In this document: piece after piece, positions 1,661 through 55,953 of the stretch
Layout: the number at the start of each line of letters is the position of its first letter
Numbering within the stretch: position 1 is the stretch's first letter
Assembly (NCBI GenBank): GCA_030669305.1
Contig: DAOVDU010000003.1
Location: 1 to 56,238 of the forward strand
Length of the DNA: 56,238 bases
Direction of reading: 5' to 3'
DNA from: Candidatus Aminicenantes bacterium
GTDB lineage: Bacteria > Acidobacteriota > Aminicenantia > Aminicenantales > Aminicenantaceae
Position numbers and translations under genes: made by a program
The notes under the pieces: generated by a model
What the model saw: the letters and a program-made list of their open reading frames with translations, nothing else
The model's database searches: none
Told to the model about the DNA's origin: nothing

Positions 1661-1699
1661 TATCCACTCAGTTAGTCAGTTAGATAAGGAAATAAGACA

Positions 1700-1737
1700 G
1701 GCAAGACAACGCTTTGCTGGCAAGACAAAGAGGCAAG
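1700..1737 (-). repeat. Inverted copy of the GCAAGACA-rich dispersed module
   Basis: GGCAAGACAACGCTTTGCTGGCAAGACAAAGAGGCAAG is the reverse complement of sequence in the modules near 16285 and 17394. Confidence 0.9.
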
Positions 1738-1750
1738 GTAAAAAATTAGA

Positions 1751-1786
1751 ATGTCATTGCGAATAGTGAAGCGACATGGCAATCTC
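1751..1786 (+). repeat. REP-like imperfect palindrome (TGTCATTGC...GCAATCTC type)
   Basis: ATGTCATTGCGAATAGTGAAGCGACATGGCAATCTC; ATTGC/GCAAT stem; resembles CGTC-class REP elements. Single copy in the window. Confidence 0.5.
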
Positions 1787-1818
1787 ATAGTTTTGAATTT
1801 ATTTGTCTTGCTTAAATT

Positions 1819-2841
1819 TTATTTATTCCTATCAAGAATAAATTCAGATAATAAGAATAAAGCATTACGGTGGGAAGATTTTGGGAGTTGATTGATAATT
1901 TCTTTAGATTTGAGGGAAAATTCCTTGGCTTTCTTATATGTGTAATCCAGGGCTCCGTTGGACTTAATGATGTCGAGAATTTCTTCTTTATAATTTTTCT
2001 CTAGATTTTTCTTTCTTAACAAATTTGTAATACGATTTCGATTTGCCTTTCCATCATTATTGAGTGTGTATATCAAAGGCAGTGTGATGCGGCCTTCATT
2101 CAAGTCAGAGAGGACAGGTTTCCCCAGGGTTTTTTCATCGCCTGTATAGTCAAGAAGGTCATCAATAATCTGAAAAGACATTCCTAAATTCGTACCAAAT
2201 TCCGCTAAAAAATCTTCTTCCTTTTTTGGTGCATTTCCGAGGATTCCCCCGATCCGGCAAGAAGCGGAGAAAAGAGCGGCAGTCTTTTTATTGATGATGT
2301 CTAGATAATCTTTTTCCTTAATATCCAGATTTCCACTGATGTAATATTCGTTCAGTTCTCCTTCGATCATTTTAGATGAAACATCGGTGAGGATTTGTGT
2401 TATCTCTCTATGTTTACTCTGGAGAGATAAGCCAAAAGTTTTTATATAAAGATAATCTCCTAAGAGAACAGTAACGTTTGGGCCCCACTTGGCATGAACG
2501 GATTCCCTCCCTCTTCTTACATCTGAGTTATCAATTATGTCATCATGGATGAGGCTTGCAGTATGAATAGTCTCAACTAATGTGGACATCAAGATGTGCT
2601 CTTTTCCTTTATAGCCAAATAATTTTGTACAAAGCAAAAGAAGAGCAGGCCTAATTCTTTTGCCTGCTTTTTGAAAGAGATAGGTGCTTATTTCAGATAT
2701 GAGTTTATTTGAGGAATGAGAGAAAAGTTTAAGCTCTTCTTCAACCTCGTCCAGATCTTTTTGAATATCTAAATACAAATTTTTTAAGGAGAGATCCTGC
2801 TTCATTTTAGCTTTGATATATTCTTTAGTGGATCTTTTCAT
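1819..2841 (-). CDS. Long-chain polyprenyl diphosphate synthase (IspB/HepT family)
   Basis: GKRIRP, first DDxxD (HDDIID...RRG), KTA, second DDxxD (IDDLLD), GKP..SDL.EG..TLP. Confidence 0.95.
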   Translation of the reverse strand: MKRSTKEYIKAKMKQDLSLKNLYLDIQKDLDEVEEELKLFSHSSNKLISEISTYLFQKAGKRIRPALLLLCTKLFGYKGKEHILMSTLVETIHTASLIHDDIIDNSDVRRGRESVHAKWGPNVTVLLGDYLYIKTFGLSLQSKHREITQILTDVSSKMIEGELNEYYISGNLDIKEKDYLDIINKKTAALFSASCRIGGILGNAPKKEEDFLAEFGTNLGMSFQIIDDLLDYTGDEKTLGKPVLSDLNEGRITLPLIYTLNNDGKANRNRITNLLRKKNLEKNYKEEILDIIKSNGALDYTYKKAKEFSLKSKEIINQLPKSSHRNALFLLSEFILDRNK

Positions 2842-2912
2842 TGTTTACTTGTAAGTGTCTGTTAATTCCTATTCATATGCAGCTTTTATCTTAACATCTC
2901 AGGTTTTTTATT

Positions 2913-3707
2913 TCAAACCATAAATAAATACTCAAAATTTTTCGATGTTATCAAAGCCAATTCTTCCAAGGCTATATTCTTTAGTTCAGCTAGAATTTTT
3001 GCAACTTCTTTCACATAGATTGGTTCATTCCTTTTTATTCGTCCTCTAAAGGAAGCAGGGACAAGGTATGGAGAATCTGTTTCGATCAAAAGTTTTTCTA
3101 AAGGTATTTTTTTAGCAACATCTCTTAGGAGGAAAGCCTTGGGAAAAGTTAAAATTCCTGAGAACGAGATGAAGAAATTTTGATTCATCATTCGTTTGGC
3201 AAATTCCAAGTCTCCGGTGAAGCAGTGAAGGATACCTCCCTGGGTGAAATGTTCCTCTTCTACAGCTCTGGCTATCTCTTTGCCAGCTTTCCGGCTGTGG
3301 ACAATGATGGGAAGGCTCATTTTCTGTGCGACGTTGAGTTGATAGCGGAAGGCTTCAGTTTGATCTTGTTGAGGGGAGAAATTGTAATAAAAGTCGAGGC
3401 CAATTTCTCCTATGGCTTTAATCTTTTTTGCCTCAGCTAACTCCTCCATTTTTTCGGCATAATTTAAGTTATAGGCCTTTGCTTGATGGGGATGGACACC
3501 TGCTGCTGCTAAGATGTTCTCGTGTTTTTCTGTCAAATCAAGAGTTATTTGGAGATTCTTGGGGTCTGTGATTTCTGCTGGGCAGAGTATCGTGCTTATC
3601 TCTTCTTGGAATGCCCTTTGGATAACATGATTCCGGTCTTCATTGAACTCTTTCATGCTCAAATGGGCATGAGAGTCAACAAAAGACAGCGTCATTTTTT
3701 CCTCCAA
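2913..3707 (-). CDS. tatD: TatD-family nuclease
   Basis: DSHAH, GVHPH, IGEIGLDF, HSR, HCF, ETDSPY, RNEP. Confidence 0.95.
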   Translation of the reverse strand: MEEKMTLSFVDSHAHLSMKEFNEDRNHVIQRAFQEEISTILCPAEITDPKNLQITLDLTEKHENILAAAGVHPHQAKAYNLNYAEKMEELAEAKKIKAIGEIGLDFYYNFSPQQDQTEAFRYQLNVAQKMSLPIIVHSRKAGKEIARAVEEEHFTQGGILHCFTGDLEFAKRMMNQNFFISFSGILTFPKAFLLRDVAKKIPLEKLLIETDSPYLVPASFRGRIKRNEPIYVKEVAKILAELKNIALEELALITSKNFEYLFMV

Positions 3708-3761
3708 GAAAAGAGTAAGGAGTTAGAAGTAAGAGGAAAATCAAAGCTCAAAACTGATTTC

Positions 3762-3852
3762 TGTTGGTTGGTTAATCAGTCAGTCGGTTAATCTGTTATT
3801 TTAATTAAAATATTTAACAGACTAACAGACTAACAGATTAACAGATTAACAG
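3762..3852. repeat. Inverted heptamer arrays (GTTAATC/GTTAGTC vs TAACAGA) around the palindrome TATTTTAATTAAAATA (3797-3812)
   Basis: Directly visible; the same architecture recurs at about 14945-15067 and 32705-32840. Confidence 0.9.
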
Positions 3853-3881
3853 TTCGTTTTCACCCTGTCTTGCTTTTTATT

Positions 3882-7367: not shown

Positions 7368-7395
7368 ACTTCCCTCTTTAAATAAAGTCAAAACT

Positions 7396-7756
7396 GAGAA
7401 CTAGTTTAAGGTTTAAGGTAGAATGTTTAATGCAAGAAGAGAAACTGGTTTAAGGTTCAAGGTAGAATGTTTAATGCGAAGAAGAATTACATTAAACCTT
7501 AAACATTAAACCTTAAACTTAAAGTTAGGAGTGAGGAAAAGGGTGTCATTGATTATATGAAAGCGCTGCTATTGTCAGCGTTTGTCAGTACAGCAGTATG
7601 GCAGTATTTACTATTAACCATTCCCCATTAACTTATTTTTTTGTCTTGCCAGCAAAGCGTTGTCTTGCCCTTTAGTTTGTCTTGCTTTTATTATTATCTG
7701 TGTTACTGAGTTACAGTGTCACTGGTTTAGACAAACCAGATAAACCAGACAAACCG
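7396..7756. repeat. Composite intergenic repeat: two ~44-bp units, inverted AAACCTT heptamers, 61-bp GCAAGACA module (7640-7700), GTTACTG heptamers, AAACCAGAT 9-mers
   Basis: All modules are visible and recur in other intergenic regions. Confidence 0.88.
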
Positions 7757-7757
7757 T

Positions 7758-14052: not shown

Positions 14053-14112
14053 TAAGTCTATTCCGTCTATTCGGTTTATCTGGTTTGTTTAAGTTTGTCT
14101 AAACCAACTTCC

Positions 14113-14241
14113 ATTCTTGCCTTAAACATTAAACCTTAATCCTTAAACCAATCTCAATTCTTGCCTTAAACATTAAACCTTAATCCTTAAACCAATCTCA
14201 ATTCTTGCCTTAAACATTAAACCTTCAACCTTAATCCTTAA
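14113..14241. repeat. 44-bp direct tandem repeat, two full copies (14113-14156, 14157-14200) plus a partial third
   Basis: Unit ATTCTTGCCTTAAACATTAAACCTTAATCCTTAAACCAATCTCA; no spacers. Confidence 0.93.
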
Positions 14242-14308
14242 GAAAATTGGGAATGATTTTTTCAGCTTATGGCTTACTGCTTACTGCTTACAAGTATTAA
14301 TTTTGAGC

Positions 14309-14888: not shown

Positions 14889-15078
14889 CGGTCTGTTCGG
14901 TCTATTCGGTCTATTCCGTTTTTCAACCTTAAACCAACTTCCATTAATCAGTTAATCAGTTAGTCAGTTAATCAGTTAGACAGTTAGTCTGTTATTTTAA
15001 TAAAAATATTCAACTGACTAACAGATTAACAGATTAACCGACTAACCGAATAACAGACTAACAGAAATCAGTTTTGAG
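14889..15078. repeat. 9-mer array plus inverted heptamer hairpin element upstream of efp
   Basis: GGTCTATTC 9-mers, then GTTAATC/GTTAGTC array, core GTTAGTCTGTTATTTTAATAAAAATATTCAAC (14983-15014), then TAACAGA/TAACCGA array. Confidence 0.88.
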
Positions 15079-16214: not shown

Positions 16215-16545
16215 AGTTAAGTCGTGAGTCGTAAGCCGTAAGTCGTAAGCAGAAAAATCATTCAGCATTAACTTATTTTCTTGTCTTGCCTCTTTGTCTT
16301 GCCAGCAAAGCGTTGTCTTGCCCTTTAGTTTGTCTTGCTTTTATTATCATCTGAGTCACTGTGTTACTGAGTAACTGGTTCAGATAAACCAGATAAACCA
16401 AACAAACCAGATAAACCGAACAGACGGAACAGACCGAATAGACTAATTAAAGTTGATTTTATAGGAGTTTTTTTCTATAAATATACCTATCACCAGTGAC
16501 CGGTTACCAGTGACTAATGACTGGTTTCTAGTGACCAATTAGTAA
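16215..16545. repeat. Composite intergenic repeat: CGTAAG heptamers, 61-bp GCAAGACA module (16293-16353), GTTACTG heptamers, 9-mer array, CCAGTGA heptamers
   Basis: Directly visible; module order matches 7620-7756 and 17390-17530. Confidence 0.88.
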
Positions 16546-17323: not shown

Positions 17324-17348
17324 TAAAAATGTTGGAAAGGAAAGACAA

Positions 17349-17398
17349 GCAAGACACATGGAAATCAGGGACAGTCCCTTGATTTCCATGTGTCTTGC
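17349..17398. terminator. Perfect 19-bp-arm hairpin with GGGACAGTCCC in the loop; possible terminator or REP-like site
   Basis: GCAAGACACATGGAAATCA (17349-17367) pairs with TGATTTCCATGTGTCTTGC (17380-17398), just downstream of the RNase Z-like gene. Confidence 0.55.
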
Positions 17399-17401
17399 CT
17401 C

Positions 17402-17462
17402 TTTGTCTTGCCAGCAAAGCGTTGTCTTGCCCTTTAGTTTGTCTTGCTTTTATTATTATCTG
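17402..17462 (+). repeat. 61-bp GCAAGACA module, third full copy
   Basis: Identical to 7640-7700; one mismatch to 16293-16353. Confidence 0.93.
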
Positions 17463-17541
17463 AGTTACTGTGTTACAGTGTCACTGAGTCACTTGTTTTG
17501 ATAAACCAGGTAAACCGAATAGACGAAATTAGGAGGTATAG

Positions 17542-17610
17542 ATGAAAGGACTAAGCATTGTAGTTTTGGCTTTATTTTTTGCGATTGGAGTATCTTGCCA
17601 GGCAGCTTAA
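17542..17610 (+). pseudogene. Lipoprotein signal peptide cut off from the amidohydrolase by an in-frame TAA
   Basis: AGGAGG RBS, then MKGLSIVVLALFFAIGVSCQAA*; same frame as the ORF starting at 17620. Confidence 0.75.
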
Positions 17611-17619
17611 AAAAAAAGA

Positions 17620-19218
17620 ATGGCGGAACTTGTTCTTCTCAATGGGGCTATCTGGACAGTAAATCCCGACCAACCTCTGGCTGAGGCCGTAGCTTTAAGG
17701 GAAGAGAAAATCCTAAAAGTTGGCTCATCCAAAGAGATAAAAAAGATGGTTGGGGCTGATACACAGGTAATTGATTTGAAAGGAGACTTTGCCCTCCCAG
17801 GCTTCATCGACTGCCATACTCATTTTCTTGATGGAGGGTTATCTCTCTCGAACATTCAGTTAAGGGAGGCGAAGAGTCGGGAAGAGTTCGTCGCCAGGGT
17901 CAAAGAAAAAACTATGGAAATCGAAAAAGGAGAGTGGATTCTTGATGGAGATTGGGATAATCAGCAGTTTGATCCTCCAGTTCTGCCGGATAAAGAATGG
18001 ATTGATTCAGTTACTCCTCATAATCCTGTATGTGTATGCCGCCTTGATAGCCATATGGTTCTTGTAAATAGTCTCTCCTTGAAGCTTGCCGGAATAACAA
18101 AAAACACATCTTCCCCTGTTGGAGGTGAGATCGTCAAAGATTTTGAGAAAGGAGAACCTACAGGAATTTTAAAAGATGCAGCAATGAATCTCGTCATGCA
18201 GCACATACCAGAGCCTTCGCTAAAAGACAAGAAAAAAGCTGCGGAATTAGCTCTGAAATATGCCAATAAAGTAGGGGTGACCTCTATTCATGATATGGCA
18301 AATGCTGCAAATTTTGAGGTTTACCAAGAGCTTTTAAAGGAAAACAAACTGACAGCCCGCCTTTATGTTTATATTCCCATAACTGAAGTCGATCTTTATG
18401 TTCGTCTTAAATTAAAAAAACCTTTTAATAACAATTTTTTAAAGATCGGGGGATTAAAGGGGTTTGTTGATGGGTCTTTAGGTTCTTCGACTGCTCTGTT
18501 CTTTGAACCATACACCGATGATCCTGAAAAAACAGGCCTGCTCTATTCTCATATGTTTCCAGAGGGAATCATGGAAAAAAGGCTCATGCAGGCCGATAAA
18601 GCAGGACTTCAAGTGGCTATCCATGCTATCGGAGATAAAGCCAACCACATTATCCTTGATATTTTTGAGGAAGTGATGACTCTTAATGGAGCTAGAGACC
18701 GGCGCTGGAGAATTGAGCACGTTCAGCATCTCATTCCTGAAGATATCGAACGTATAGCTAAGCTTAATGTCATTGCTTCTGTCCAGCCTTATCATGCCAT
18801 TGATGATGGAAGATGGGCTGAAAAAAAGATTGGGCATAAGAGAGCCAAATATACATATGTCTTTAAATCTCTCTTGGAGAAAGGAACTGTCCTGGCCTGT
18901 GGTTCTGACTGGACCGTTGCACCTTTAAATCCTCTTACAGGAATCTATGCTGCAGTAACGCGTCAAACACTTGACGGCAAAAATGTAGAGGGCTGGATTC
19001 CCGCGCAAAAAATTTCCTTGGAGGAGGCTATCAGGGGATATACTATAAATGGGGCTTATGTAGAGTTTTCCGAGGATATTAAAGGCTCGATAGAAAAGGG
19101 GAAACTTGCTGATTTTGTCGTGCTCAATCAGAATCTTTTTGAAATTCCTCCTGAAAAAATTAAAGAAACAAAAGTTCAAATGACCATATTTAACGGGAAG
19201 ATTGTTTATAGAAAATAG
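17620..19218 (+). CDS. Amidohydrolase 3 family (YtcJ-like) metal-dependent hydrolase
   Basis: PGFIDCHTH, KGFVDGSLGS.TA, AIHAIGD, RIEHVQ, GSDW.V, KGSIEKGKLADFVVL. Confidence 0.92.
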   Translation: MAELVLLNGAIWTVNPDQPLAEAVALREEKILKVGSSKEIKKMVGADTQVIDLKGDFALPGFIDCHTHFLDGGLSLSNIQLREAKSREEFVARVKEKTMEIEKGEWILDGDWDNQQFDPPVLPDKEWIDSVTPHNPVCVCRLDSHMVLVNSLSLKLAGITKNTSSPVGGEIVKDFEKGEPTGILKDAAMNLVMQHIPEPSLKDKKKAAELALKYANKVGVTSIHDMANAANFEVYQELLKENKLTARLYVYIPITEVDLYVRLKLKKPFNNNFLKIGGLKGFVDGSLGSSTALFFEPYTDDPEKTGLLYSHMFPEGIMEKRLMQADKAGLQVAIHAIGDKANHIILDIFEEVMTLNGARDRRWRIEHVQHLIPEDIERIAKLNVIASVQPYHAIDDGRWAEKKIGHKRAKYTYVFKSLLEKGTVLACGSDWTVAPLNPLTGIYAAVTRQTLDGKNVEGWIPAQKISLEEAIRGYTINGAYVEFSEDIKGSIEKGKLADFVVLNQNLFEIPPEKIKETKVQMTIFNGKIVYRK

Positions 19219-19484
19219 CACATTACTCAGTATGAGATAAATCAAGAGATTTTCTTTCATTTTGTGTGGGTTATATGTATGATAATCTGATGACTAAATG
19301 CCCAATAGTTTGGGAAATCCGAAGTCCGACATATTGAAATCCGAAACAAATTCAAATGACCGTTTTAAAGTGAAAAGTAAAGAATAAGTAGTAAGAAGTA
19401 AACAAGAATAAAAATAATTTTCTCCTAACTTCTTACTCCTTACTTAGTTTTTGGTTTTGAAAATTGCAGGAAAATAGCATTTAG

Positions 19485-20468: not shown

Positions 20469-20653
20469 CAATAAAGTAATATGTTAGTCTGTTTATCTGT
20501 TAGCCAGTTAGTCAGTTAATCTGTTAGTCAGTTAGTCGTCTCCCCCTCTCCCAGTCGTTCTTTTTGCTCCTTACTATTATTTTTTTATCTCTGGTGAACA
20601 AATTTATTTGAATTGAGAAATTAATTTGTTATTATATTCAGTCTTTTTTATGA

Positions 20654-27593: not shown

Positions 27594-29096
27594 ATGAGTG
27601 AGAATAAAAAAGAAATGCCTCAGGAGCTCAAAAAAAGGCTCAGGACCGCGTTTAATGAAGAGTGGCGCAAAGAGCTGCGCAAATCCCTACCTGCGAAGGA
27701 AAGAATAAAGATTCCTCGCCAGAAGATGCCAGAGAGAGATGCTGAAGAACGGAACAAGGATTTTTATGAAGTTAACCTTGGTTTGGAAGCTAAGATGGCT
27801 AAGGCGGAAGCCCAGAGATGCCTGGATTGTGCTAATCCTCAATGTGTGACAGGCTGCCCTGTTGGTATTGATATTCCCACGTTCATAAAACTTATAGAGA
27901 TAGGAGATTTCGAACAGAGTGTTCGAATGATAAAAGAGACTAACAGTCTTCCAGCTATCTGTGGCCGTGTATGCCCGCAGGAAACTCAGTGTGAAGTTGT
28001 TTGCAATCTAAAAAAAGCCACTGGTGTTCCAGTTGCTATTGGAAATTTGGAGCGGTTTGTTGCTGATTATGAGAGAATTAATGGAAATGTTTATATCCCT
28101 CCTATACCGCCGGCAACTGGCAAGAAAGTGGCCATTATCGGAGCAGGGCCTGCAGGCCTTACTGTAGCCGGAGATCTGGCAAGAAAAGGCCATAAGGTGA
28201 CAATTTTTGAAGCCCTCCATATTGCAGGCGGTGTTCTGGTCTACGGAATACCCGAATTCAGGCTTCCAAAAAAAAGCCTTCAAGCAGAAGTGGAATACCT
28301 TGAACGACTAGGAGTTGAGTTGAAAACAAATTTTGTTGTGGGTAAAACTGCTACTCTGAAAGATTTAGAAAACGAGGGATACGATGCGTTTTTTATAGGG
28401 TCAGGGGCAGGGCTGCCGAATTTTATGAGGATTCCTGGAGAAAATTTGATCGGAGTCTATTCGGCTAACGAATATTTAACACGGGTAAATCTGATGAGGG
28501 CCTATGAATTTCCTAAATATGATACCCCCGTGTTTTTAGGAAAGAAAGCAGCAGTGCTTGGCGGTGGTAATGTTGCCATGGATTCAGTCCGAACAGCCAA
28601 GAGACTCGGTGCTGAAATGGCGGCTATTGTCTACCGCCGTTCAAGTGTTGAGATGCCGGCAAGGGCAGAAGAAGTGCATCATGCAGAAGAGGAAGGCATT
28701 GAGTTTCTTTTTTTGACAACCCCAATAAGATACTTTGGGGATGAAAAAGGCCGGGTTAAGGCTATGGAATGTTTGAGAATGGAACTCGGTGAGCCTGATG
28801 CTTCTGGAAGACGTCGGCCTATTCCTATTAAAGGTTCAGAGTTTGTCATGGATGCTGACTTGGTTGTTGTGGCGATTGGAAACAGCCCTAATCCATTGAT
28901 TCCACAGACTACTCCTCAATTAAAAGTTGGAAAATGGGGAAATGTGGAAGTTGATTGGGACACTATGGCTACCAGTATAAAAGGAGTTTATGCTGGAGGA
29001 GATATTATTCGTGGTGGAGCTACGGTTATTTTGGCAATGGGCGATGCCCGAATTGCAGCAGCCAGTATTGATAAATACCTGTCAAATAAAAAGTGA
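27594..29096 (+). CDS. nfnB: NfnB/SudA-like (GltD-family) NADP(H) flavoprotein
   Basis: RCLDC.NPQCVTGCP, CGRVCPQETQCE, GAGPAG, YGIPEFRLP, GGGNVAMD, YRRS, GGD..RG.ATVILAM; directly follows nfnA. Confidence 0.88.
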   Translation: MSENKKEMPQELKKRLRTAFNEEWRKELRKSLPAKERIKIPRQKMPERDAEERNKDFYEVNLGLEAKMAKAEAQRCLDCANPQCVTGCPVGIDIPTFIKLIEIGDFEQSVRMIKETNSLPAICGRVCPQETQCEVVCNLKKATGVPVAIGNLERFVADYERINGNVYIPPIPPATGKKVAIIGAGPAGLTVAGDLARKGHKVTIFEALHIAGGVLVYGIPEFRLPKKSLQAEVEYLERLGVELKTNFVVGKTATLKDLENEGYDAFFIGSGAGLPNFMRIPGENLIGVYSANEYLTRVNLMRAYEFPKYDTPVFLGKKAAVLGGGNVAMDSVRTAKRLGAEMAAIVYRRSSVEMPARAEEVHHAEEEGIEFLFLTTPIRYFGDEKGRVKAMECLRMELGEPDASGRRRPIPIKGSEFVMDADLVVVAIGNSPNPLIPQTTPQLKVGKWGNVEVDWDTMATSIKGVYAGGDIIRGGATVILAMGDARIAAASIDKYLSNKK

Positions 29097-29250
29097 ATAG
29101 TGAATGGTGAATAGTAAACACTGTTATACAGCCGTACTGCAATACTGCAAACTGAAGACTGCCTATTGGTATTTTCGCCCTGTCGCCATTTCTCCGTTTC
29201 GCCGGTTCGTTCTTTTTGCTCCTAACTCCTCACTTCTTACTAATCTTGGA
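29093..29250. repeat. Heptamer mosaic (GTGAATA, ACTGCAA, CTCCTAA families)
   Basis: AGTGAATAGTGAATGGTGAATAGTAAA...; CTCCTAACTCCTCACTTCTTACT. Confidence 0.7.
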
Positions 29251-30553: not shown

Positions 30554-31228
30554 ATGCGGCAGCCAGAACTCTTTCAAGTGGAAAAAGGGCACATCGGAAC
30601 AGATGAATCAGGGAAGGGGGATTATTTCGGTCCTCTTGTGGTGGCGGGATTTTTTCTTCCAGATAAGCAGCAAAAAGTTCTTCGAGAATTTGGTGTAAAA
30701 GATAGTAAACAATTTTCGGACAACCGCGTCAGGGAATTGGCTGATTTCATAAAAAGGGGATACAAATATTCACTAGTAGTCATCGGACCGGAAAAATATA
30801 ATGAGCTTTATAATAAGTTGAGAAACCTTAACAGAATCCTTGCCTGGGCTCATTCTCGTGCTATCGAAAACATCCTCGAAGAAGTCCCTTGTAGTCTTGC
30901 CATCACTGATCAGTTTGGGGATAAGCTATATGTCAGTAATGCCCTGATGAAACGGGGAAGGAATATTGAGCTCATTCAAAGGCCAAAAGCTGAGGAAGAT
31001 TTGGCCGTGGCTGCAGCGTCGATTCTTGCTCGAGCTGAATTTTTGAGGCGGCTCTACTTTCTTTCTCAAGATATAGGGATGGGCCTTCCTAAAGGTTCCT
31101 CTCCTATGGCTGAAGAAGCTGCGGTGAAGCTTGTCAAACTCCAGGGAGTCCAGATTCTCGATAAAGTCACCAAGAAACACTTCAAACTCACCAAACGAGT
31201 GCTGGATTTAGTAAAGAGTGAGGAATGA
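30554..31228 (+). CDS. rnhC: Ribonuclease HIII, catalytic domain only
   Basis: DESGKGDYFGP, VKDSK, DQFG, KAE, AVAAASILAR are HIII-type motifs. Confidence 0.82.
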   Translation: MRQPELFQVEKGHIGTDESGKGDYFGPLVVAGFFLPDKQQKVLREFGVKDSKQFSDNRVRELADFIKRGYKYSLVVIGPEKYNELYNKLRNLNRILAWAHSRAIENILEEVPCSLAITDQFGDKLYVSNALMKRGRNIELIQRPKAEEDLAVAAASILARAEFLRRLYFLSQDIGMGLPKGSSPMAEEAAVKLVKLQGVQILDKVTKKHFKLTKRVLDLVKSEE

Positions 31229-31238
31229 GGAGCAGGAG

Positions 31239-31439
31239 AACTCAAAACTCAAAGCTCAAAACTCAAAACTGACATTCGTAAGCCGTAAACCGTAAGCCAT
31301 AAGCAGAAAAATCCATTCGCCATTTCCCATTCACTATTCACCATTCCCCATTTACTTATTTTTTTGTCTTGCCTCTTTGTCTTGCCAGCAAAGCGTTGTC
31401 TTGCTTGCCCAATAGGGCATTGTCTTGCCCGAATTGCTT
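31239..31439. repeat. Composite intergenic repeat: CTCAAAA, CGTAAGC and TTCACCA heptamers plus a partial GCAAGACA module
   Basis: Directly visible; 31376-31404 matches the first part of the 61-bp module. Confidence 0.88.
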
Positions 31440-31521: not shown

Positions 31522-32721
31522 ATGAATAAACAAACCAAACGGCTTTATTTTGAAAATCCCTATCAAGTTGAGTTTGATGCGAAGATTATAGAAAAAACAA
31601 CTTATGAGGAAAAATCTGCCTTGATCCTTGATAAAACCTGTTTTTATCCTGAATCAGGAGGACAGCCTTCGGATAAAGGAACCATAAACGGAATCAAAGT
31701 AATAAAAGTAATGGAGGAAAATTCCAGAATCCTTCATGTTCTCGAGGAAGATGTTTTCTCTGAAGACATAAAAGGAGTCATTGATTGGACAGTTCGTTTT
31801 GACTATATGCAGCAGCATACAGGTCAGCACATTCTTTCTCAGAGTTTTGATGAAATCTACAATGCAGAGACCTTATCTTTCCATTTAGGGGATAAGATTT
31901 CTTCTGTTGAGATTGATTTAAGGAAGATTACAGAAGAGGAAGTTGAAAAGGTAGAAAGATTGGCTAATGAGATCGTATTCCAGGACAGGGAGATAAAAAC
32001 TTATTTCATAAAGGAAGAAGAAACACAGAGCATCCCGTTGAGAAAGCCTCCAAAGAAGAAGGGACTTATTCGTATTGTCGAAATATCAGATTTCGATTAT
32101 TCAGCCTGTGGAGGAACACATCTGCGCAGGACAGGTGAAGTCGGTATTATAAAAATCCTCAAGTTGGAGAGAATCAGGAACAATGTCAGATTTGAATTTT
32201 TATGCGGGAAGAGAGCACTTCAAGATTATACACGGAAAAACAGAGATCTTCGTCATCTTTCCAATAAGCTAACCGTTAGTGAAGGCGAAATCCTTAATTC
32301 ATTCGAAAAACTTGTTTTTGAACTCAAGGATCAAAAAAAGAAGAATAAAAATACCCAAGAGAAACTTATCCAGTATGAGGCTCAGGAAGCCATTCAAGGA
32401 GCGAAAGAAAAAATAATCAAAGAGATTTATTCTGGAAGAAACCCAGAGGAAGTGAAATCTCTGGCCCTAAATATAATAAAAAAAGGAGAATATGTTGTTC
32501 TTTATGGGCTAAAAGCAGAGAAGAGAGTTCATTTGGTACTGGCAAGCTCTGAGACTTTAGACATAGACATGAGAGAGCTTGTTCCCATAGTTACACCTAT
32601 GATAAAAGGAAAGGGAGGAGGAAGTCCTTCTTTGGTTCAGATAGCAGGAGAAGATCCAGAAAATCTAGAATTGGCATTGGATAGAGCCTATGAGTATATT
32701 AATAATCGGTTAGTCAGTTAG
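31522..32721 (+). CDS. AlaX-L alanyl-tRNA editing protein with C-terminal DHHA1/C-Ala domain
   Basis: Likely start MNKQTKRLYFENPY; FYPESGGQPSD.G, MQQHTGQH (HxxxH), CGGTH, GKGGGS. Confidence 0.9.
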   Translation: MNKQTKRLYFENPYQVEFDAKIIEKTTYEEKSALILDKTCFYPESGGQPSDKGTINGIKVIKVMEENSRILHVLEEDVFSEDIKGVIDWTVRFDYMQQHTGQHILSQSFDEIYNAETLSFHLGDKISSVEIDLRKITEEEVEKVERLANEIVFQDREIKTYFIKEEETQSIPLRKPPKKKGLIRIVEISDFDYSACGGTHLRRTGEVGIIKILKLERIRNNVRFEFLCGKRALQDYTRKNRDLRHLSNKLTVSEGEILNSFEKLVFELKDQKKKNKNTQEKLIQYEAQEAIQGAKEKIIKEIYSGRNPEEVKSLALNIIKKGEYVVLYGLKAEKRVHLVLASSETLDIDMRELVPIVTPMIKGKGGGSPSLVQIAGEDPENLELALDRAYEYINNRLVS

Positions 32722-32840
32722 TCTGTTAATCAGTTAATCGGTTAATCAGTTAGTCAGTTATTCAGTTAATCGGTTAAATATTTTAATTAAAATAACAGAC
32801 TAACTGATTAACAGACTAACTGATTAACCGACTAACCGAT
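32705..32840. repeat. Long inverted heptamer hairpin filling the gap between convergent alaX and ABC permease genes
   Basis: GTTAGTC/GTTAATC array, palindrome TATTTTAATTAAAATA (32779-32794), TAACAGA/TAACTGA array. The alaX stop TAG lies inside the array. Confidence 0.92.
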
Positions 32841-34088
32841 TCATTCATGCCTAAGCGCGACAATTGGGTCGAGCTTGGCTGCCTTTTGAGCAGGAAAGAT
32901 TCCGAAGAAAAGACCCACAGAGACAGAGACAAAAAATCCTAATAAAACGGACCAGAGAGTTACAGAAGCAGGAAGAGGAGTTGCAGCCTTTACAAGAAAA
33001 GCTATGGAGAAGCCTATAATTATGCCTGATGTGCCTCCTATGCAAGTAAGGAGGATTGCCTCAATCAAAAACTGCTTTAGGATATCCCCCGAGCGGGCTC
33101 CGATGGCTTTTCGAATTCCGATTTCTCTTGTTCTTTCCTTGACAGAGACCAGCATGATATTCATGACGCCAATTCCACCTACAAGAAGGCCGATTGAGGA
33201 GATAACAATCATGACCAGGTAGACTGCCCCTGTGATTTGGTTGTAAAGGTCTATAATAGTATCCTGAGTAAAAATGGCAAAGTCGTTGGGTTTTCCGAAT
33301 CCGACTTTTCTTCTTTTACGGAGAACGTTAATTATCTGTTCCATGGTTTCTTGGATATAACCATGTTTTTCGGGAGTGGCAGTAATTTCGATTCCTGAGA
33401 GGTCATAAGGAAAATACTTCATAAGAGTTGTGATGGGAATGCCAATAAAATTATCCTGGCTCTGTCCGAATATACTACCTCTTTTTTCGAGCAATCCAAT
33501 AACCGTAAATTTTTCAGGTCCAATTCTTATTTCTTTTCCCAGAGCTTCAGTGTAAGGAAAGAGAGTCTCAGTCAGCTCAGACCCAAGGACACAAACTTTA
33601 GTGCGGTGAATAATATCTGATTCAGATATGAATCTTCCCTTTTGCGGAAGATAAACAGATAGAACCATAGGGAATTTCTCGTTCATCCCAATAATTATAG
33701 AATCCTGACTTTTGATATTTTGGTATTTGATAGGGATGTTCTCAAAGACATCCACAACAAGGTCAACGGCAACTGCTTTGACCAATGAACATTCATTCTC
33801 GATAGCGAGAGCATCTTCAAAGGTGAAGTCTTTTCTCTGTCTTATTTCCTCAGAAGAGCGGCCTATGTGAACGCCTGGTTCGGATTTGCTCACCATGATT
33901 ATGTCTGAACCGATGGATTCAAGTTCACTGAGAAAAGTTCTGTTTAAACCCTGGATAATAGATACCATCCCAATAACGGTCGCCACACCGATCATGATTC
34001 CTAACAGTGTTAAGAAAGATCGGAGTTTATGGCTTTTTATCGAATCAAAGGCCATTTGAAATATTTCTTTAAGAATTCCAATTCTCAT
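32841..34088 (-). CDS. MacB/FtsX-family ABC permease
   Basis: RSFLTLLGIMIGV, periplasmic domain, GGIGVMNIMLVSVKERTREIGIRKAIGA, FPAQKAAKLDPIVALR. Confidence 0.93.
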   Translation of the reverse strand: MRIGILKEIFQMAFDSIKSHKLRSFLTLLGIMIGVATVIGMVSIIQGLNRTFLSELESIGSDIIMVSKSEPGVHIGRSSEEIRQRKDFTFEDALAIENECSLVKAVAVDLVVDVFENIPIKYQNIKSQDSIIIGMNEKFPMVLSVYLPQKGRFISESDIIHRTKVCVLGSELTETLFPYTEALGKEIRIGPEKFTVIGLLEKRGSIFGQSQDNFIGIPITTLMKYFPYDLSGIEITATPEKHGYIQETMEQIINVLRKRRKVGFGKPNDFAIFTQDTIIDLYNQITGAVYLVMIVISSIGLLVGGIGVMNIMLVSVKERTREIGIRKAIGARSGDILKQFLIEAILLTCIGGTSGIIIGFSIAFLVKAATPLPASVTLWSVLLGFFVSVSVGLFFGIFPAQKAAKLDPIVALRHE

Positions 34089-35320: not shown

Positions 35321-35505
35321 TGTTCTACTGCTTTATTACATTTAACTCATATTATATATGATACGGAAGAATTTGAGAAAGGTTTTATCCGGTTCGTTTC
35401 TTCAAATCTCAAAACTGACACAACTGACTAAACTGTGTTGTTTCTCGCTTTTCTAGCGTTTCTAGCTTAAAATAATGAACAAGGAGATTTTTTTATAAAA
35501 AAATT

Positions 35506-35546
35506 TAAAGGGGTCGCGTCTCAACATTTGACATTTATTAATAAAA
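35506..35546 (-). repeat. 41-bp element, right (inverted) copy
   Basis: TAAAGGGGTCGCGTCTCAACATTTGACATTTATTAATAAAA. Confidence 0.95.
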
Positions 35547-35712
35547 GTACAAGGAGGGCAAGACAAAACAAACTCAAAGCTCAAAACTGAGAAATGGTTG
35601 AAGGTTTAAGGCAAGAATAGAAATTTGTTTGAGGCTTGATGTTAAATTTAAGAAACCTTTAACGTTAAAGCTTAAACTTTAAACTTACCTTAAGGAATGA
35701 GGAGTAAAAAGA

Positions 35713-36294: not shown

Positions 36295-36307
36295 TATTAT
36301 TATACAA

Positions 36308-36380
36308 AAAACGTAAAACGACAAACGCAAAACGATTATCTAATATTTTTTTTATACTTCTTACGTTTTACGTTTGACGT
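36308..36380. repeat. Inverted AAACGTA/TTTACGT heptamer arrays
   Basis: AAAACGTAAAACGACAAACGCAAAACG ... CTTACGTTTTACGTTTGACGT. Confidence 0.7.
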
Positions 36381-38253: not shown

Positions 38254-38276
38254 AAGTCATCTCCCTCTTCTCCCAA

Positions 38277-38406
38277 TTAGTTGATGCAAAGGGTTCGAGG
38301 ATTCAAGTGTTTTTTTTGTAGCGATTTAGTAAGTGCTTTGAGCATCCTCTCAACCTCTCCTATTCCCTCCTGTGCAAACTTTTAATTCTTTGTAATTCTT
38401 AAGCAT
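38277..38406 (-). pseudogene. Internally deleted four-helix-bundle (23S rRNA IVS family) gene
   Basis: ATG at 38406 gives MLKNYKELKVC; a shifted frame gives GIGEVERMLKALTKSLQKKHLNP. These match the typical N- and C-termini of this family with the middle missing. Confidence 0.72.
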
Positions 38407-38659
38407 TTCACTCGAATCCCTGACCCCTTGACTCCTTGAATCCTTATGATCCTACCAACTCTTTTGGAGATGATCCATAATTAAATTACCTTTAACTTTC
38501 AACTTTAAACCTTAAACCAAATATGTATTGCCGCCCGATAGGGATTTGTCTTGCTAATTACTTAACGGTCTAAACAGACTAAACGGACCTAACGGACTAA
38601 ACTGATTGAATCATTGACTAAAATATACTGAGATGCAATAATATTTTTTAAGGTGCAAA

Positions 38660-40453: not shown

Positions 40454-40485
40454 TAAGCAGACTGCATTCTTCATTAATAACTCAA

Positions 40486-40680
40486 AACTCATATCTCAAA
40501 GCTCAAAACTTATTTCTGTTAACCAGTTACTCGGTTAGTCTGTTTGTCAGTTAACCGAATAACAGACAAACTGACTAACAGTTCTTTTTCTCGCATATTA
40601 TTTGTCTTGCCTGTCTTGCCTATATACATAAACCAAACAAACCAGATAAACGGAACAGACTTAATAGACCGAATAGACGG
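40486..40680. repeat. Composite intergenic repeat at the mltD/rplQ convergence
   Basis: CTCAAAA heptamers, GTTAGTC/TAACAGA inverted heptamers, TGTCTTGCC doublet, AAACCAGAT/AATAGACCG 9-mers. Confidence 0.85.
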
Positions 40681-53967: not shown

Positions 53968-53969
53968 TG

Positions 53970-54266
53970 CTAAACAGCCTCAAAATATTCAATCATTTTT
54001 TCGCCTTCTTTAAGCTTCACATAAGCTTTCTTCCAGTCCTTAGTTTTCCCTTCATTCCGGCCTACCCTTCTCTTTTTTCCTTTTCTCTTCATGACTCGAA
54101 CTCTCTCCACTTTTACTTTAAAGATACGTTCTGTAGCTTCCTTGATTTCAATCTTATTTGCTTTTGGGTTTACTTCAAAGCAAATCTCTCTGTTTTTATC
54201 TTTTAACCATGTACTTTTTTCGGTAATTACAGGTCTTATAATAATTTGATAAGGGTCTTTAATCAC
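53970..54266 (-). CDS. rplW: 50S ribosomal protein L23
   Basis: [27 protein letters not shown]. Confidence 0.97.
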
Positions 54267-54889
54267 TTCAGCCTCTCTATTAAAGACTCAAAAGCCCTCT
54301 GAGTAAGCACAAGCCATTTGTAATTTAAAACATCATATACATTGACTTGATTATGATCAACAGCTTTTACTTTTGGAATATTTCCTAGAGATAGGAATAG
54401 GTTCTCATTTTCATGATCATCAACAATCAAAGCCGAATCCAAGCTTAACATCTCCAGTAGCTTTGCTCCTTCCTTGGTTTTAGGTTCTTTAAAATTCAGT
54501 TTTTCTAGGACAAGCAGCTGATTCTCCGCAAATTTCATAGACAAGGCAGATTTTAATGCATTCCTTTTAACCTTTTTAGGCAAGCTGTAATAGTAAGTTT
54601 TAGGCTTTGGCCCAAAAACTATCCCACCTTTTCTCCACAGAGGCGACCGATTACTCCCGGCCCTTGCCCTTCCTGTTCCTTTCTGTCTCCAAGGCTTACG
54701 GCCCCCTCCTCTCACTTCACTCCTTGTTTTTGTAGAAGCAGTTCCATGCCTCTGGTTCGTGCGATAATTTATAACAACCTCGTATAACAAGTGCTCTTTT
54801 ACCGGATAGGAAAAAATTTCCTTAGGTGCATTAATTTCCTTTGTTTTTTTCCCGCTCTGGTTTAAAACCTGCACTTTTTGCATTTTCAC
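54263..54889 (-). CDS. rplD: 50S ribosomal protein L4
   Basis: GTASTKTRSEVRGGGRKPWRQKGTGRARAGS.RSP.W..GG..FGPKP. Confidence 0.98.
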   Translation of the reverse strand: MKMQKVQVLNQSGKKTKEINAPKEIFSYPVKEHLLYEVVINYRTNQRHGTASTKTRSEVRGGGRKPWRQKGTGRARAGSNRSPLWRKGGIVFGPKPKTYYYSLPKKVKRNALKSALSMKFAENQLLVLEKLNFKEPKTKEGAKLLEMLSLDSALIVDDHENENLFLSLGNIPKVKAVDHNQVNVYDVLNYKWLVLTQRAFESLIERLK

Positions 54890-55548
54890 TCTTTCTCTGC
54901 ATTTCTTGAAGCTTCAGTCTGAAAATTTGATTTTTTTATCAATAGATAGCTTCCGTTCGCTCCAGGAATAGCTCCTTTGACGACAAGGAGGTTGTTTTCT
55001 TTATCAGATTGAATAACTATCAAGTTCTTGATTGTAATTCTCTCATGCCCCATGTGGCCTGGGAGTTTTTTTCCTTTTACTACACGCGAAGGATAGGCAG
55101 AAGCTCCAGTTGAACCTGGAGACCTATGAAACATAGATCCATGAGTGGCCTTGCCGCCTCGAAAACCCCAGCGTTTAACAACACCGGCAAAGCCTTTTCC
55201 TTTGCTTTTTCCTGCAACATTAACTTTTTCTCCTACCTGGAAAATATCCACAAAAAATTGATCTCCCTCCTTGATCTCACTTTTTTCATCAAAACAAAAT
55301 TCTCGCAGGATTTTTGTCGGAGGAATACCTGCCTTTTTAAACTGTCCGATAAGCGACTTGCTTGTCTTTTTGGCCCCTTTCTCTTCTACCAAGCCTAATT
55401 GGAGAGATGAATAACCATCTTTTTCTCTTGATTTCTTCTGGATAACAGTACACGGCCCTGCCTGAATTACGGTAACAGGGACAACATTTCCCTTATCGTC
55501 GAAACTCTGTGTTATGCCGATCTTCTTCCCGATTAATCCCTCAACCAT
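54886..55548 (-). CDS. rplC: 50S ribosomal protein L3
   Basis: Start MVEGLIGKK after AGGAG; VPVTV, SKGKGFAG..KRW.F, HGS..HR.PGS, GHMG. Confidence 0.98.
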   Translation of the reverse strand: MVEGLIGKKIGITQSFDDKGNVVPVTVIQAGPCTVIQKKSREKDGYSSLQLGLVEEKGAKKTSKSLIGQFKKAGIPPTKILREFCFDEKSEIKEGDQFFVDIFQVGEKVNVAGKSKGKGFAGVVKRWGFRGGKATHGSMFHRSPGSTGASAYPSRVVKGKKLPGHMGHERITIKNLIVIQSDKENNLLVVKGAIPGANGSYLLIKKSNFQTEASRNAEKE

Positions 55549-55549
55549 G

Positions 55550-55870
55550 CTATTCTCCTGCGGCTCCAAAAGCCTGGATTTCTACATCTATCCCTGCTGG
55601 TAAATCCAACTTCTGAAGCTCCTCGATGGTTTCATTGTTGTAATCACTTATGTCGATCAGCCTCTTGTGTATTCTCATTTCAAAGTGCTCTCTAGACCTT
55701 TTATCAACATGAGGAGAACGAAGAACACAAAACCTATGAATACGAGTTGGCAAAGGAATAGGCCCTGATATCTTTGCCCCTGTTCTTTTTGCCTTGACGA
55801 CAATATCTTTCACAGACTGGTCTAATAATCGATGATCAAATGATTGGAGTCTGATTCGTATTCTTTCCAT
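55550..55870 (-). CDS. rpsJ: 30S ribosomal protein S10
   Basis: [38 protein letters not shown]. Confidence 0.98.
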
Positions 55871-55883
55871 TTACCTATTCCTT

Positions 55884-55953
55884 GTTCATTCGGTTTATCT
55901 CGTTTATCTCGTTTATCTGGTTTATTCGGTTTATATGGTTCATCTGGTTTATA
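55884..55953. repeat. 9-mer tandem array (GTTTATCTG consensus, about 8 units) in the tuf-rpsJ spacer
   Basis: GTTCATTCG GTTTATCTC GTTTATCTC GTTTATCTG GTTTATTCG GTTTATATG GTTCATCTG GTTTATA. Confidence 0.92.

Follow-up and report, generated by a model that had tools for sequence, protein, structure and literature searches.

The intergenic gaps of a 56,238-nucleotide stretch of DNA from Candidatus Aminicenantes bacterium (contig DAOVDU010000003.1 of assembly GCA_030669305.1; here called the window) are rich in short tandem arrays built from a shared kit of units of 7-9 nucleotides (nt). We put the probability at roughly 0.6 that these arrays are gene-less derivatives of cassettes similar to the intervening sequences (IVS) of 23S rRNA, reshuffled by recombination and slippage. 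A complete cassette would consist of a gene of the four-helix-bundle family PF05635/TIGR02436 ('S23p') bracketed by inverted tandem arrays of 7-9 nt units, and the arrays of the window would be the arms, or fragments of the arms, of such a family of small cassettes. The gene-less forms in the window would then be inverted pairs of arrays around a short AT-rich or hairpin centre, or solo arms in preferred orders.

Arrays and their units

Tandem Repeats Finder (TRF) recovers about 60 distinct short-period arrays in the window. Those with a period of 6-10 and at least 2.8 copies cover 1285 of the 5842 intergenic bases (22%) as against 131 of the 50,396 coding bases (0.26%), and first-order Markov simulation of the same gaps gave 9 bp of arrays on average and never more than 67 bp, compared with the 1285 bp observed. 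The number of array-bearing gaps, 17, agrees with an earlier reading made from the letters alone (the sequence-only reading), which had described at least 16 longer gaps filled in this way; each repeat family that it named was found at or near the place given. Some of its labels need correction. GTTAGTC/GTTAATC and GTTACTG were called heptamers but are really 8-mers (GTTAATCA and CTGAGTTA), GTGAATA (29092) is not a separate family but the reverse complement of the CCATTCA family (31313), and the CCAGTGA array is present but has a period of 21 bp (16492-16539).

Which units make up the kit? There are two kinds of 8-mers, GTTAATCA/GTTAGTCA, with the reverse complement TAAC[T/A/C]GA[T/C], that is, TAACTGA plus one base, and CTGAGTTA. 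The heptamers are AAACCTT, CTCAAAA, CGTAAGC, CCATTCA and GTAAGGA/CTCCTTA, the 9-mers are AAACCAGAT and GAACAGACC, and the rest of the kit comprises TACTGCAA, TTTCGCC and a few singletons. The 8-mer TAACNGAN, AAACCTT, GTAAGGA and the 9-mers are among the abundant families. The arrays have all the features of long simple repeats: units within 5-11 nt repeated beyond chance, a mainly intergenic position, the same units at many loci and strain differences by whole units. They are not CRISPR arrays, since the units of 7-9 nt run head to tail with no spacers.

The same junctions in near-identical strains

Are the arrays fixed at their junctions? The window was compared with contig Ga0209979_1000092 and several contigs from ENA, NCBI and Logan that are syntenic at 97.7-99% identity; some of the Logan contigs represent the same strain as the window (99.8-99.97% identity). 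All 11 comparable array-bearing junctions differ between strains, four by unit number alone and seven by block changes, so that orthologous junctions are not fixed. No indel separates the strains at the array-free junctions 2842-2912, 5649-5770 and 8769-8850, whose identity is about 98%, and the ribosomal operon forms one alignment block of 15,278 bp with equal length in both strains.

The junctions that differ by unit number are 1661-1818 (two units), 19219-19484 (one), 20469-20653 (two) and 55871-55967 (four). The window exceeds L095 by four units in the array at 55884, and L109 and L110 differ by two in the array at 20482; whole-unit differences (one to four) were seen at 1661, 16218, 19422, 20482, 40454 and 55884. 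Block changes affect larger parts of a junction. At 3708-3881 other modules of the kit replace the entire content in L082 between identical flanks, at 14053-14308 the content is replaced in L088, and at 14945-15078 a palindrome gives way to a different module series in L084. At 7368-7757 a 97-bp GC-rich element resembling miniature inverted-repeat elements (MITEs) takes the place of the 8-mers in L088, and the hairpin at 7399 has a matching 14-bp indel in both arms (14 bp per arm are missing from L088). From 16171-16546, L109 and L111 lack a 118-bp block (16334-16451, bounded by the direct repeat TTGNTTTTAT) and have one additional heptamer, while 40454-40689 has at least three alleles among strains that are about 98.7% identical. 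In the replaced junctions at least one breakpoint lies within a shared module (9-mers, AAACCTT, CTCAAAA or the M module described below), which points to homology-driven exchange.

Filled and empty versions of the same site are also found. A 291-bp insert of the window (17324-17619) is absent from three relatives, in which the stop codon of a metallo-beta-lactamase (MBL)-fold gene overlaps the start codon of an amidohydrolase gene (ATGA). Conversely, the site 11861/11887, empty in the window, is occupied in L088 by a palindromic element of 172 bp with ACCAAAT heptamers.

The same arrays were recovered, between flanks of 97.7-99.97% identity, in at least four independent assemblies (the JGI, ENA, Logan and NCBI metagenome-assembled genome (MAG) data), so the assembly collapse that the sequence-only reading had considered is not what is seen. 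The same-strain Logan contig L091 matches the window arrays at 29097-29257 base for base, its 22 mismatches all lying in coding sequence; the arrays are thus stable within the strain and not an assembly artefact. Some short-read contigs from Logan and ENA (L091, L096 and L105-L108) start or end at or within arrays or dispersed elements (for example at 31268, about 55891 and 38295), as would be expected of multi-copy repeats.

The M module and compound blocks

M (GTCTTGCC) is a recurring non-tandem module built on the 9-mer TTGTCTTGC, which occurs 20 times against 0.66 expected; a 28-mer of M, TGTCTTGCCAGCAAAGCGTTGTCTTGCC, has five occurrences in the window. Together with the 8-mers that follow it, M forms blocks of 85-86 bp that are 97.6% identical at 7640-7724, 16282-16367 and 17391-17476, and these paralogous blocks match each other as closely as orthologues do. 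The fifth copy of M (31364-31428) lies within a spurious open reading frame (ORF) with a TTG start. Two inverted M pairs enclosing no gene (1693-1811 and 17340-17450) are present in the window, as are solo arms.

Do the modules follow a fixed order? The adjacency series GTAAGGA-CTCAAAA-CGTAAGC-CCATTCA-M-8-mers-9-mers is found at 31211-31428 and at 16218-16443. The recurring order proposed by the sequence-only reading holds for the compound block at three loci, but elsewhere it is a matter of preferred adjacencies rather than of strict order. A single linear order is ruled out by the series CCATTCC-AAGGTTT-9-mer-M in L082 and by the occurrence of CTCAAAA beside M in both orientations.

Inverted pairs and predicted stems

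Many arrays are paired in inverted orientation around an AT-rich core, as had been claimed from the letters. Folding of the 8-mer palindromes predicts stems of 50-60 bp with a free energy (dG) of about -55 kcal/mol and z of -10 to -12. Complementary termini that could form a long stem, as in the IVS, are therefore present in the window palindromes (z -9 to -12). The single imperfect palindrome of 20-40 bp, typically in inverted doublets with fixed spacing, that marks the repetitive extragenic palindromes (REP), their hairpin-forming doublets (REPIN) and the bacterial interspersed mosaic elements (BIME) is not, since each arm consists of 7-9 nt units in tandem and both its length and its spacing vary. 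No strict compensatory co-variation was seen between the arms of the 8-mer palindromes; their mismatches fall at variable unit positions, so the pairing of the arms follows from the unit consensus.

A link to the four-helix-bundle gene

What connects the arrays to a gene family? In the same species, positions 7417-7836 of locus L090 match PF05635 (E 1e-32) and TIGR02436, and this four-helix-bundle gene is flanked by (GTGCAAGGC)x4-5 and inverted (CGCCTTGC)x4. The gene is found at the same dsbD-like/POR junction in L113 and L114 (99% protein identity) and in L115 (83%), and the numbers of 9-mers beside it differ among these four loci. The downstream flank in L115, TGTCTTGCC-TCCT-TGTCTTGC-TAACGAAGTGT-TGTCTTGCC, is the M module. 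The sample that yielded a 98.7% relative of the window also contains a paralogue with 66% identity, L119; 3' of this gene lie about 230 bp of TGTCTTGCC-AGCAAAGCGT repeats, including the 28-mer and a GCCCGATAGGGC hairpin that the window has at 31405-31420 and 38528-38545. L117 (63%) has AGCAAGACT x3 upstream and AGTCTTGCT x3 downstream. Because M flanks four-helix-bundle genes of the same species, M in the window is arm material of such a cassette.

The association extends to distant bacteria. The homologues considered lie at 19 distinct loci, from metagenomic contigs, Desulfosarcina variabilis and plasmids of eight genera (Nostoc, Anabaena, Calothrix, Geminocystis, Picosynechococcus, Pseudanabaena, Stanieria and Riemerella); within the plasmid collection, the PF05635 family is restricted to cyanobacteria and Riemerella, whose groups were already noted for heptamer arrays (PMC4679880). 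A periodicity of 7-9 nt within 100 bp of the gene was found in 19 of 19 loci. Strongly inverted flanks of the same unit occur in nine (z 7.5-16 versus shuffles), weaker or more distant inverted flanks in at least four more, and direct arrays in three. Examples are (GGGAACA)x4-gene-(TGTTCCC)x7 in Nostoc C052, (AGCGGGAAA)x10-gene-(TTTCCCGC)n in Desulfosarcina and GGTTTAAGGTTCAAGGTTTAAG-gene-(AAACCTT)n in Riemerella, where the unit is a heptamer of the window. The sequence-only reading had asked whether its repeat families flank intact four-helix-bundle genes elsewhere; two of about 12 families do, M in the same species and AAACCTT in Riemerella.

Clusters of related proteins share unit motifs: GCAAG[A/G]C in the Aminicenantes group, GCGGGAAA in the group of L116, L120 and L122, CTTCAAA with CTTCTGCC in PCC 7120 and Stanieria, and GGGAA in Nostoc C052 and Geminocystis. 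Gene and arms are thus inherited together. A HEPN/nucleotidyltransferase (NTase) pair adjoins the gene in L120, and an NTase/HepT-like pair does so in L116.

In several cyanobacterial plasmids (L125, L131, L132 and L129) the gene and its repeat arms lie within operons, between cas6 and cas4 in Anabaena 90 and Pseudanabaena, between cas10 and cmr3 in Picosynechococcus and between two ribonucleotide reductase subunit genes in Nostoc edaphicum. Such placement is typical of an intruding element. A '23S rRNA IVP' is listed in a survey of CRISPR associations (PMC10910872), and operon-sited cassettes may explain this published association. The PF05635 protein has also been noted to resemble the Avd accessory protein of diversity-generating retroelements (DGRs) (PMC10053308). 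In the literature searched, which was not complete, we found no link between the PF05635 family and tandem-repeat flanks outside rRNA, and no report of such repeats in Aminicenantes or Acidobacteriota.

Spread of the kit within and beyond the species

An exact search for the 28-mer gave 10 matching stretches in JGI metagenome contigs, of which three belong to two contigs that are syntenic with the window; the other seven are at unlinked loci with the same unit families and were for this reason taken to belong to the same species. Unit families are common to the unlinked loci L081, L083 and L085-L090. Kit arrays of at least three units number 30 in the 56-kb window as against three in 1.08 Mb of sequence surrounding efp, most of it from other Aminicenantes. 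Array mosaics do exist in two distant Aminicenantes: that of L043 is built from other units, and L008 has TCCTTAC x17 arranged as inverted arrays. No copy of M was found in viral contigs. The sole viral match to the 8-mer pattern is an unrelated AT-rich contig, L112, with TAACTGAT x3.5 (1430-1457) and TTATTCT x14.7 (2100-2201).

Array-bearing gaps of the window

The gaps are listed by position, with the strand after the coordinates.

1664..1811, minus: gene-less inverted M pair, with 8-mers CAGTTAGT x2 (1664-1683), reverse M units with the exact 28-mer (1700-1727), a centre of about 75 bp and a forward M unit (1803-1811); L082 has two more 8-mer units.
3713..3874, plus: GTAAGGA-type and CTCAAAA heptamers, an 8-mer palindrome (3770-3852: GTTAATCA arm, AT-rich core, TAACAGAC arm; stem -30.6 kcal/mol, z -9.3) and one M unit (3866-3874); occupies the whole TatD/DUF885 junction.
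7399..7545, plus: AAGGTTT/AAACCTT ('H') hairpin, a 44-bp unit x2 (7399-7485) against AAACCTT (7489-7527), then AGTTAGGAGTGAGG; z -4.1.
7570..7755, plus: compound block of CAGCAGTA-type units, CCATTCC units, M module (7641-7690), CTGAGTTA-type 8-mers (7693-7728) and 9-mers AGACAAACC x3 (7729-7755).
14053..14291, minus: reverse 9-mers GTCTATTCC/GGTTTATCT (14053-14100), AAACCTT-rich 44-bp unit x3.1 (14100-14241) and GCTTACT heptamers (14263-14291).
14889..15065, minus: 9-mers CGGTCTATT x3 (14889-14916) and a short AAACCTT stretch, the arrays at 14889-14944 belonging to the efp leader and lying outside the gene; then a 120-bp 8-mer palindrome (14944-15065) directly past the galK stop codon (-55.2 kcal/mol, z -10).
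16218..16539, plus: CGTAAGT heptamers (16218-16249), CATTCAG units, M with four units (16281-16338), 8-mers (16351-16377), 9-mers CAGATAAAC and GAACAGACC (16381-16443) and 21-bp repeats containing CCAGTGA (16492-16539).
17335..17625, plus: the 291-bp insertion, with inverted M units on either side of a perfect 22-bp hairpin (17349-17398), M module (17403-17447), 8-mers (17460-17493) and 9-mers (17500-17530); at 17543-17611 this strain-specific insert has a strong ribosome-binding site and a 22-codon ORF (MKGLSIVVLALFFAIGVSCQAA) resembling a lipoprotein signal peptide; z -10.1.
19314..19444, plus: AAATCCG units (19314-19346) and inverted GTAAGAA/CTCCTTA heptamers around an AT-rich centre (19375-19444); weak stem, z -2.6.
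20482..20580, plus: single arm of 8-mers GTTAGTCN x7 (20482-20537) and the motif GTTCTTTTTGCTCCTTACT.
29092..29245, minus: AGTGAAT heptamers (reverse complement of CCATTCA), TACTGCAA 8-mers, TTTCGCC and CTCCTAA-type heptamers reaching the ribosome-binding site.
31211..31428, plus: the fullest forward series, GTGAGGA, CTCAAAA x4.6, CGTAAGC x4, CCATTCA x5.7 and M with a GCCCAATAGGGC hairpin (31364-31428).
32703..32841, plus: 8-mer palindrome across a convergent junction, overlapping both stop codons (-54.4 kcal/mol, z -12.2).
35410..35700, plus: 9-mers (35410-35468), a dispersed element of 41 bp (35506-35546) that repeats 31440-31480 in inverted orientation, an M unit in reverse (35558-35566), units of CTCAAAA and a hairpin of AAGGTTT/AAACCTT (35596-35700).
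36307..36380, plus: inverted AAAACG/CGTTTTA heptamers around an AT-rich centre; weak stem, z -2.7.
38266..38602, plus: dispersed element of about 220 bp with CCTTGA 8-mers (38266-38484), AAACCTT units (38486-38518), a GCCCGATAGGG hairpin with an M unit (38528-38554) and 9-mers ACTAAACGG x4.8 (38560-38602).
40479..40680, plus: CTCAAAA x4.6, a short 8-mer palindrome (40515-40580), M units x2 (40602-40621) and 9-mers (40628-40680).
55884..55954, minus: 9-mers GTTTATCTN x7 in the tuf-rpsJ gap, the leader of rpsJ on this strand.

Other dispersed elements accompany the arrays. The 41-bp element (ATGTCAAATGTTGAGACGCGACCCCTTTA...) is non-repetitive and has two perfect inverted copies about 4 kb apart, both beside M units. 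The element of about 220 bp at 38266-38484 recurs at the unlinked locus L087 (380-608) with 95% identity; it carries CCTTGA/AAGGATTC 8-mers and, on its minus strand, a ribosome-binding site with a 22-codon ORF (MLKALTKSLQKKHLNPRTLCIN). A 105-bp GC-rich MITE-like element with the inverted ends GTCATTGCGAG/CTCGCAATGAC is present in related JGI strains (L088 1635-1739, 8279-8383 and 9164-9268; L084 40-129 and 2321-2410) and absent from the window. All five copies stand directly after the last GTCTTGC unit of an M module, which looks like a module-specific insertion target of this element. At L084 2400-2650, another element of about 220 bp is nested in a 105-bp element; it has inverted ends of about 24 bp (GGCATAATACTCA...) and a target duplication of 7 bp (CGCAATG), and no other insertion seen here combines inverted ends with a clean target duplication.

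Genes of the window and annotation

The window has a GC content of about 40% and an ordinary housekeeping gene content, as judged from profile scans and the orthologous locus. Its products include a CYTH protein, polyprenyl synthase, TatD, FabH, EF-P, galactokinase, a NuoEFG-like complex, RNase HII, MacB-type permeases, a LysM/SLT protein and the S10-spc-alpha ribosomal operon. The Pfam scan covered the large non-ribosomal genes up to about 40.5 kb, and the genes of the ribosomal operon were named via the orthologous locus. Among the genes scanned there were no cas genes and no matches to transposase, integrase or REP-associated tyrosine transposase (RAYT) families, which bears out the statement of the sequence-only reading that the window has no transposase. 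A Pfam scan found none of these three kinds of enzyme among 59 ORFs of seven other loci (L082-L087 and L090, about 64 kb). In the window, Rfam at gathering thresholds gave no family and no rRNA, and a tRNA scan gave no genes, so the gaps are without known structured RNA. The closest relatives of EF-P among 185,579 species genomes are from Candidatus Aminicenantes MAGs, at up to 77% identity. This places the organism in the Aminicenantes, with no close representative among these species, and rules out a Nostocales cyanobacterium with short tandemly repeated heptamers as the source.

Small unannotated ORFs near the arrays had no Pfam or NCBIfam match save a weak one to the RNA polymerase omega subunit (793-1140). 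The efp ORF call is overextended to 14944 across the 9-mer leader (14881-14944), and an AlaX-like gene is called with a TTG start at 31369 inside M, the true ATG being at 31522. Since ORF calls run into arrays in this way, automatic annotation of such genomes gives false N-terminal extensions. Cumulative GC skew has its maximum at about 36-38 kb, where the mainly plus orientation of the genes gives way to an exclusively minus one (36000-40500); here forks or transcription meet, and the skew may reflect either replication or coding-strand bias. A HEPN/nucleotidyltransferase pair and a large AAA_23/SMC-like ATPase in L087 (5533-6251 and 8721-10904) look like a defence island.

Comparison with known systems

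The IVS of Coxiella burnetii has been described as a selfish element with an S23p ORF and a stem of 28-bp terminal inverted repeats cut by RNase III; tandem GACAGAT heptamers lie 5' of the ORF in strain-variable number, and an origin by transposition was hypothesised (PMC4990558). The present elements resemble the IVS of Coxiella and Leptospira in several respects. The PF05635/TIGR02436 gene lies inside complete cassettes of the same species and at 18 other loci, the ends are complementary and could form a long stem, strain-variable repeats of heptamer type stand beside the ORF, and GACAGAT resembles the window arm units TAACAGAT/TAACAGAC. There are differences as well. Copies here lie between protein-coding genes and not in helix 25 or 45 of 23S rRNA, and in place of a 28-bp stem each arm is a long degenerate array, reaching about 60 bp, or about 230 bp in L119. 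Most copies in this genome are without the ORF, and several arm families are concatenated. An enclosed PF05635 ORF is found in L090 and L119 but not in the window.

The class to which the arrays belong is an old one. The short tandemly repeated repetitive sequences (STRR) of cyanobacteria, which consist of heptamer arrays, were reportedly described by Mazel in 1990, and dispersed repeats of 21-27 nt inside Nostoc heptamer arrays are said to have been reported by Elhai et al. in 2008. Like the present elements, these are very small, are nested among tandem heptamers, are present in some related genomes and absent from others, and are not known to have a mobilising enzyme. Arrays of 5-11 nt units between genes form a recognised class, with heptamers the commonest, and arrays of TAACTGA have been described upstream of start codons in Beggiatoaceae, cyanobacteria and Bacteroidetes (PMC4679880). 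The latter occur as mixtures of heptamers, with repeat-free gaps in relatives, indels in steps of 7 nt and contigs ending in repeats; no mechanism was established, and S1, Csp and CsrA were named as candidate binding proteins (PMC4679880). The arrays of the window share with STRR and TAACTGA arrays the intergenic 7-9 nt tandem units at many loci, the mixture of units within a gap, whole-unit indels, shorter repeat-free gaps in relatives and contig breaks, and the 8-mer of the window contains TAACTGA. Unlike them, they have 8-mers and 9-mers as prominent as the heptamers, long palindromes with a conserved AT-rich core and recurrent series of several modules. The gene family flanked here is not among the candidate binding proteins of the TAACTGA study (PMC4679880).

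The resemblance to REP/BIME and to REPIN-RAYT systems (PMC3116915) lies in the extragenic, hairpin-forming, highly repeated, mosaic and strain-variable nature of the elements, and in the idea that non-coding repeats are partnered by one small gene family which they flank. By contrast, the unit here is a short tandem array and not a single palindrome of 20-40 bp. No RAYT was found in the genes scanned across about 120 kb of this species, and the flanked gene encodes a four-helix-bundle protein with no known catalytic activity. MITEs and BOX-type elements are non-coding, with inverted ends and a modular interior in which the number of middle modules varies. The 44-bp unit of the window, present twice at 7399 and three times at 14100, is similar in this respect, but no fixed terminal inverted repeat, clean target-site duplication or parent insertion sequence was found for the arrays, and the ends are inverted arrays of variable length.

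Origin of the arrays

How would gene-less cassettes give rise to the present picture? Arm length would change by replication slippage, and blocks would be exchanged between junctions by homology-driven ectopic recombination or by template switching among dispersed copies of the modules. Naive sites would occasionally be entered by insertion, by whatever route. By analogy with the 23S IVS, the inverted arms may pair into long double-stranded RNA stems cleavable by RNase III, whose cutting would either remove the element from the host transcript or split the transcript. Either outcome would make insertion at operon junctions tolerable.

The sequence-only reading had described the arrays as layered scars of mobile or recombinogenic cassettes. 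Derivation from cassettes, recombinogenicity and polymorphism are retained, but because tblastn detected no decayed four-helix-bundle gene in the window, 'gene-less derivatives' is a better term than 'scars'. Its rejection of simple slippage agrees with the block replacements and the filled and empty sites, although slippage also acts, as the four junctions that differ by whole units indicate. With neither a mobilising enzyme nor a clean target-site duplication found, the word 'mobile' rests on presence/absence polymorphism and on the breakpoints in shared modules, both of which fit recombination at least as well as transposition.

Several observations weigh against a derivation from cassettes. 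Neither an intact four-helix-bundle gene nor a decayed remnant was found in the window, where tblastn gave noise only, and the 8-mer palindrome, 9-mer, CTCAAAA, CGTAAGC and CCATTCA families have no link to the gene. The 18-nt identity between the Riemerella flank and window positions 7446-7463 is short and could be convergence. The 19 homologue loci were chosen by homology, with no matched control for the background density of arrays, as in cyanobacteria. The L090 cassette lies at the same junction in a relative with 83% identity, which indicates that this copy has not been recently mobile. At both filled/empty sites the ends are undefined, and instead of a clean target-site duplication there are only imperfect direct repeats of 5-12 bp. 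The 17324 insert carries the start of a foreign gene and so looks like a copy-paste of a junction rather than a transposition; its 22-codon ORF is probably the copied start of another gene, and neither its hairpin nor its small ORF has a second copy in about 200 kb of sequence from the same species. Consensus scans for promoters and terminators gave no excess over shuffled sequence, and the stems are without T-tracts. Finally, RNase III processing of the stems would be an extrapolation from the 23S IVS.

Could the arrays instead be selected cis-acting sites, either platforms for regulators or unstructured translational leaders, that are kept because they regulate neighbouring genes? In such a scheme, the four-helix-bundle protein could be the binding partner, and the unit sequence does co-vary with the protein subfamily. 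Arrays of 9-mers stand immediately 5' of the ribosome-binding sites of efp and rpsJ, CTCCTTA arrays do so at several others, and the 8-mer is one base longer than TAACTGA, the heptamer reported upstream of start codons (PMC4679880). However, the series occur in either orientation to the genes and also in convergent junctions, and near-identical strains have wholly different modules at the same housekeeping junction, which is hard to reconcile with specific regulation. Promoter- and terminator-like sites are no more frequent than in shuffled sequence, weak promoter-like matches recurring within M (TTGCCC-18-TATTAT and, on the minus strand, GTGACA-18-GATAAT). We regard selection for regulation as an unlikely origin of the arrays.

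To about the same degree we doubt that the arrays are MITE- or REPIN-like elements moved by a conventional enzyme encoded elsewhere, for example a RAYT or an IS200-605 Y1 transposase, with the four-helix-bundle gene as a passenger or preferred target. Hairpin-forming extragenic repeats are RAYT substrates (PMC3116915), and elements with inverted ends do occur in the related strains, namely the 105-bp element that follows M in five of five cases and the nested element with its 7-bp target duplication. Against this, the scans of the window genes and of the seven other loci returned no transposase, integrase or RAYT, both filled/empty sites are without a clean target duplication, and the arms are degenerate tandem arrays of variable length and not fixed terminal repeats. 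The co-variation of units and protein would also be unexpected for a passenger gene.

In-situ slippage alone, with ordinary long simple repeats arising independently at each junction and with no cassette or movement, is very improbable. Slippage has been proposed for heptamers, the commonest class of long simple repeats in bacteria according to the summary of Mrazek (2007) in PMC4679880, and it would suffice for the four junctions that differ by whole units only. As the sole explanation it is already contradicted. A dozen units are shared by many unlinked loci in preferred orders, non-repetitive compound blocks of 85 bp are 97.6% identical at three loci, sets of modules are replaced between identical flanks, filled and empty sites are clean, and the loci examined in other Aminicenantes hold almost nothing of the kit. 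An artefact of short-read metagenome assembly or binning can be set aside: although same-strain Logan contigs tend to end near arrays (L091 at 31268 in CTCAAAA, and L096 starts in 9-mers), at least four independent assemblies have the same arrays, and the mismatches of L091 spare its arrays.

Implications

Intergenic heptamer arrays have been known since about 1990 and the intervening sequences of 23S rRNA for equally long, and we know of no agreed origin or mechanism for either. The window and its near-identical strains reveal arrays that behave as exchangeable modules at gene boundaries. The link to one small gene family across at least four phyla joins these two old puzzles.

The derivation of the window arrays from 23S-IVS-like cassettes can be taken further, although here we are doubtful. 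Bracketed PF05635 genes (Avd-like, 'S23p') might be widespread selfish cassettes, with the 23S IVS as a special case and with STRR, TAACTGA-type arrays and the arrays of the window as gene-less progeny, the protein acting in trans on the arms of its own subfamily in the manner of RAYT and REPIN. Should this tentative generalisation apply, such a class of cassettes would be one for which we found no description in the literature searched, and the 23S IVS would be its first-noticed case.

The proposal makes predictions: every unit family is expected to have its cognate four-helix-bundle gene, array density to track the copy number of that gene family, and the stems to be RNase III sites. The polymorphism among strains renders the mechanism testable. 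There are practical consequences too, since the arrays break short-read assemblies and create spurious ORF starts (31369 and 14944), and the cassettes may account for the '23S rRNA IVP' genes that stand beside CRISPR genes.

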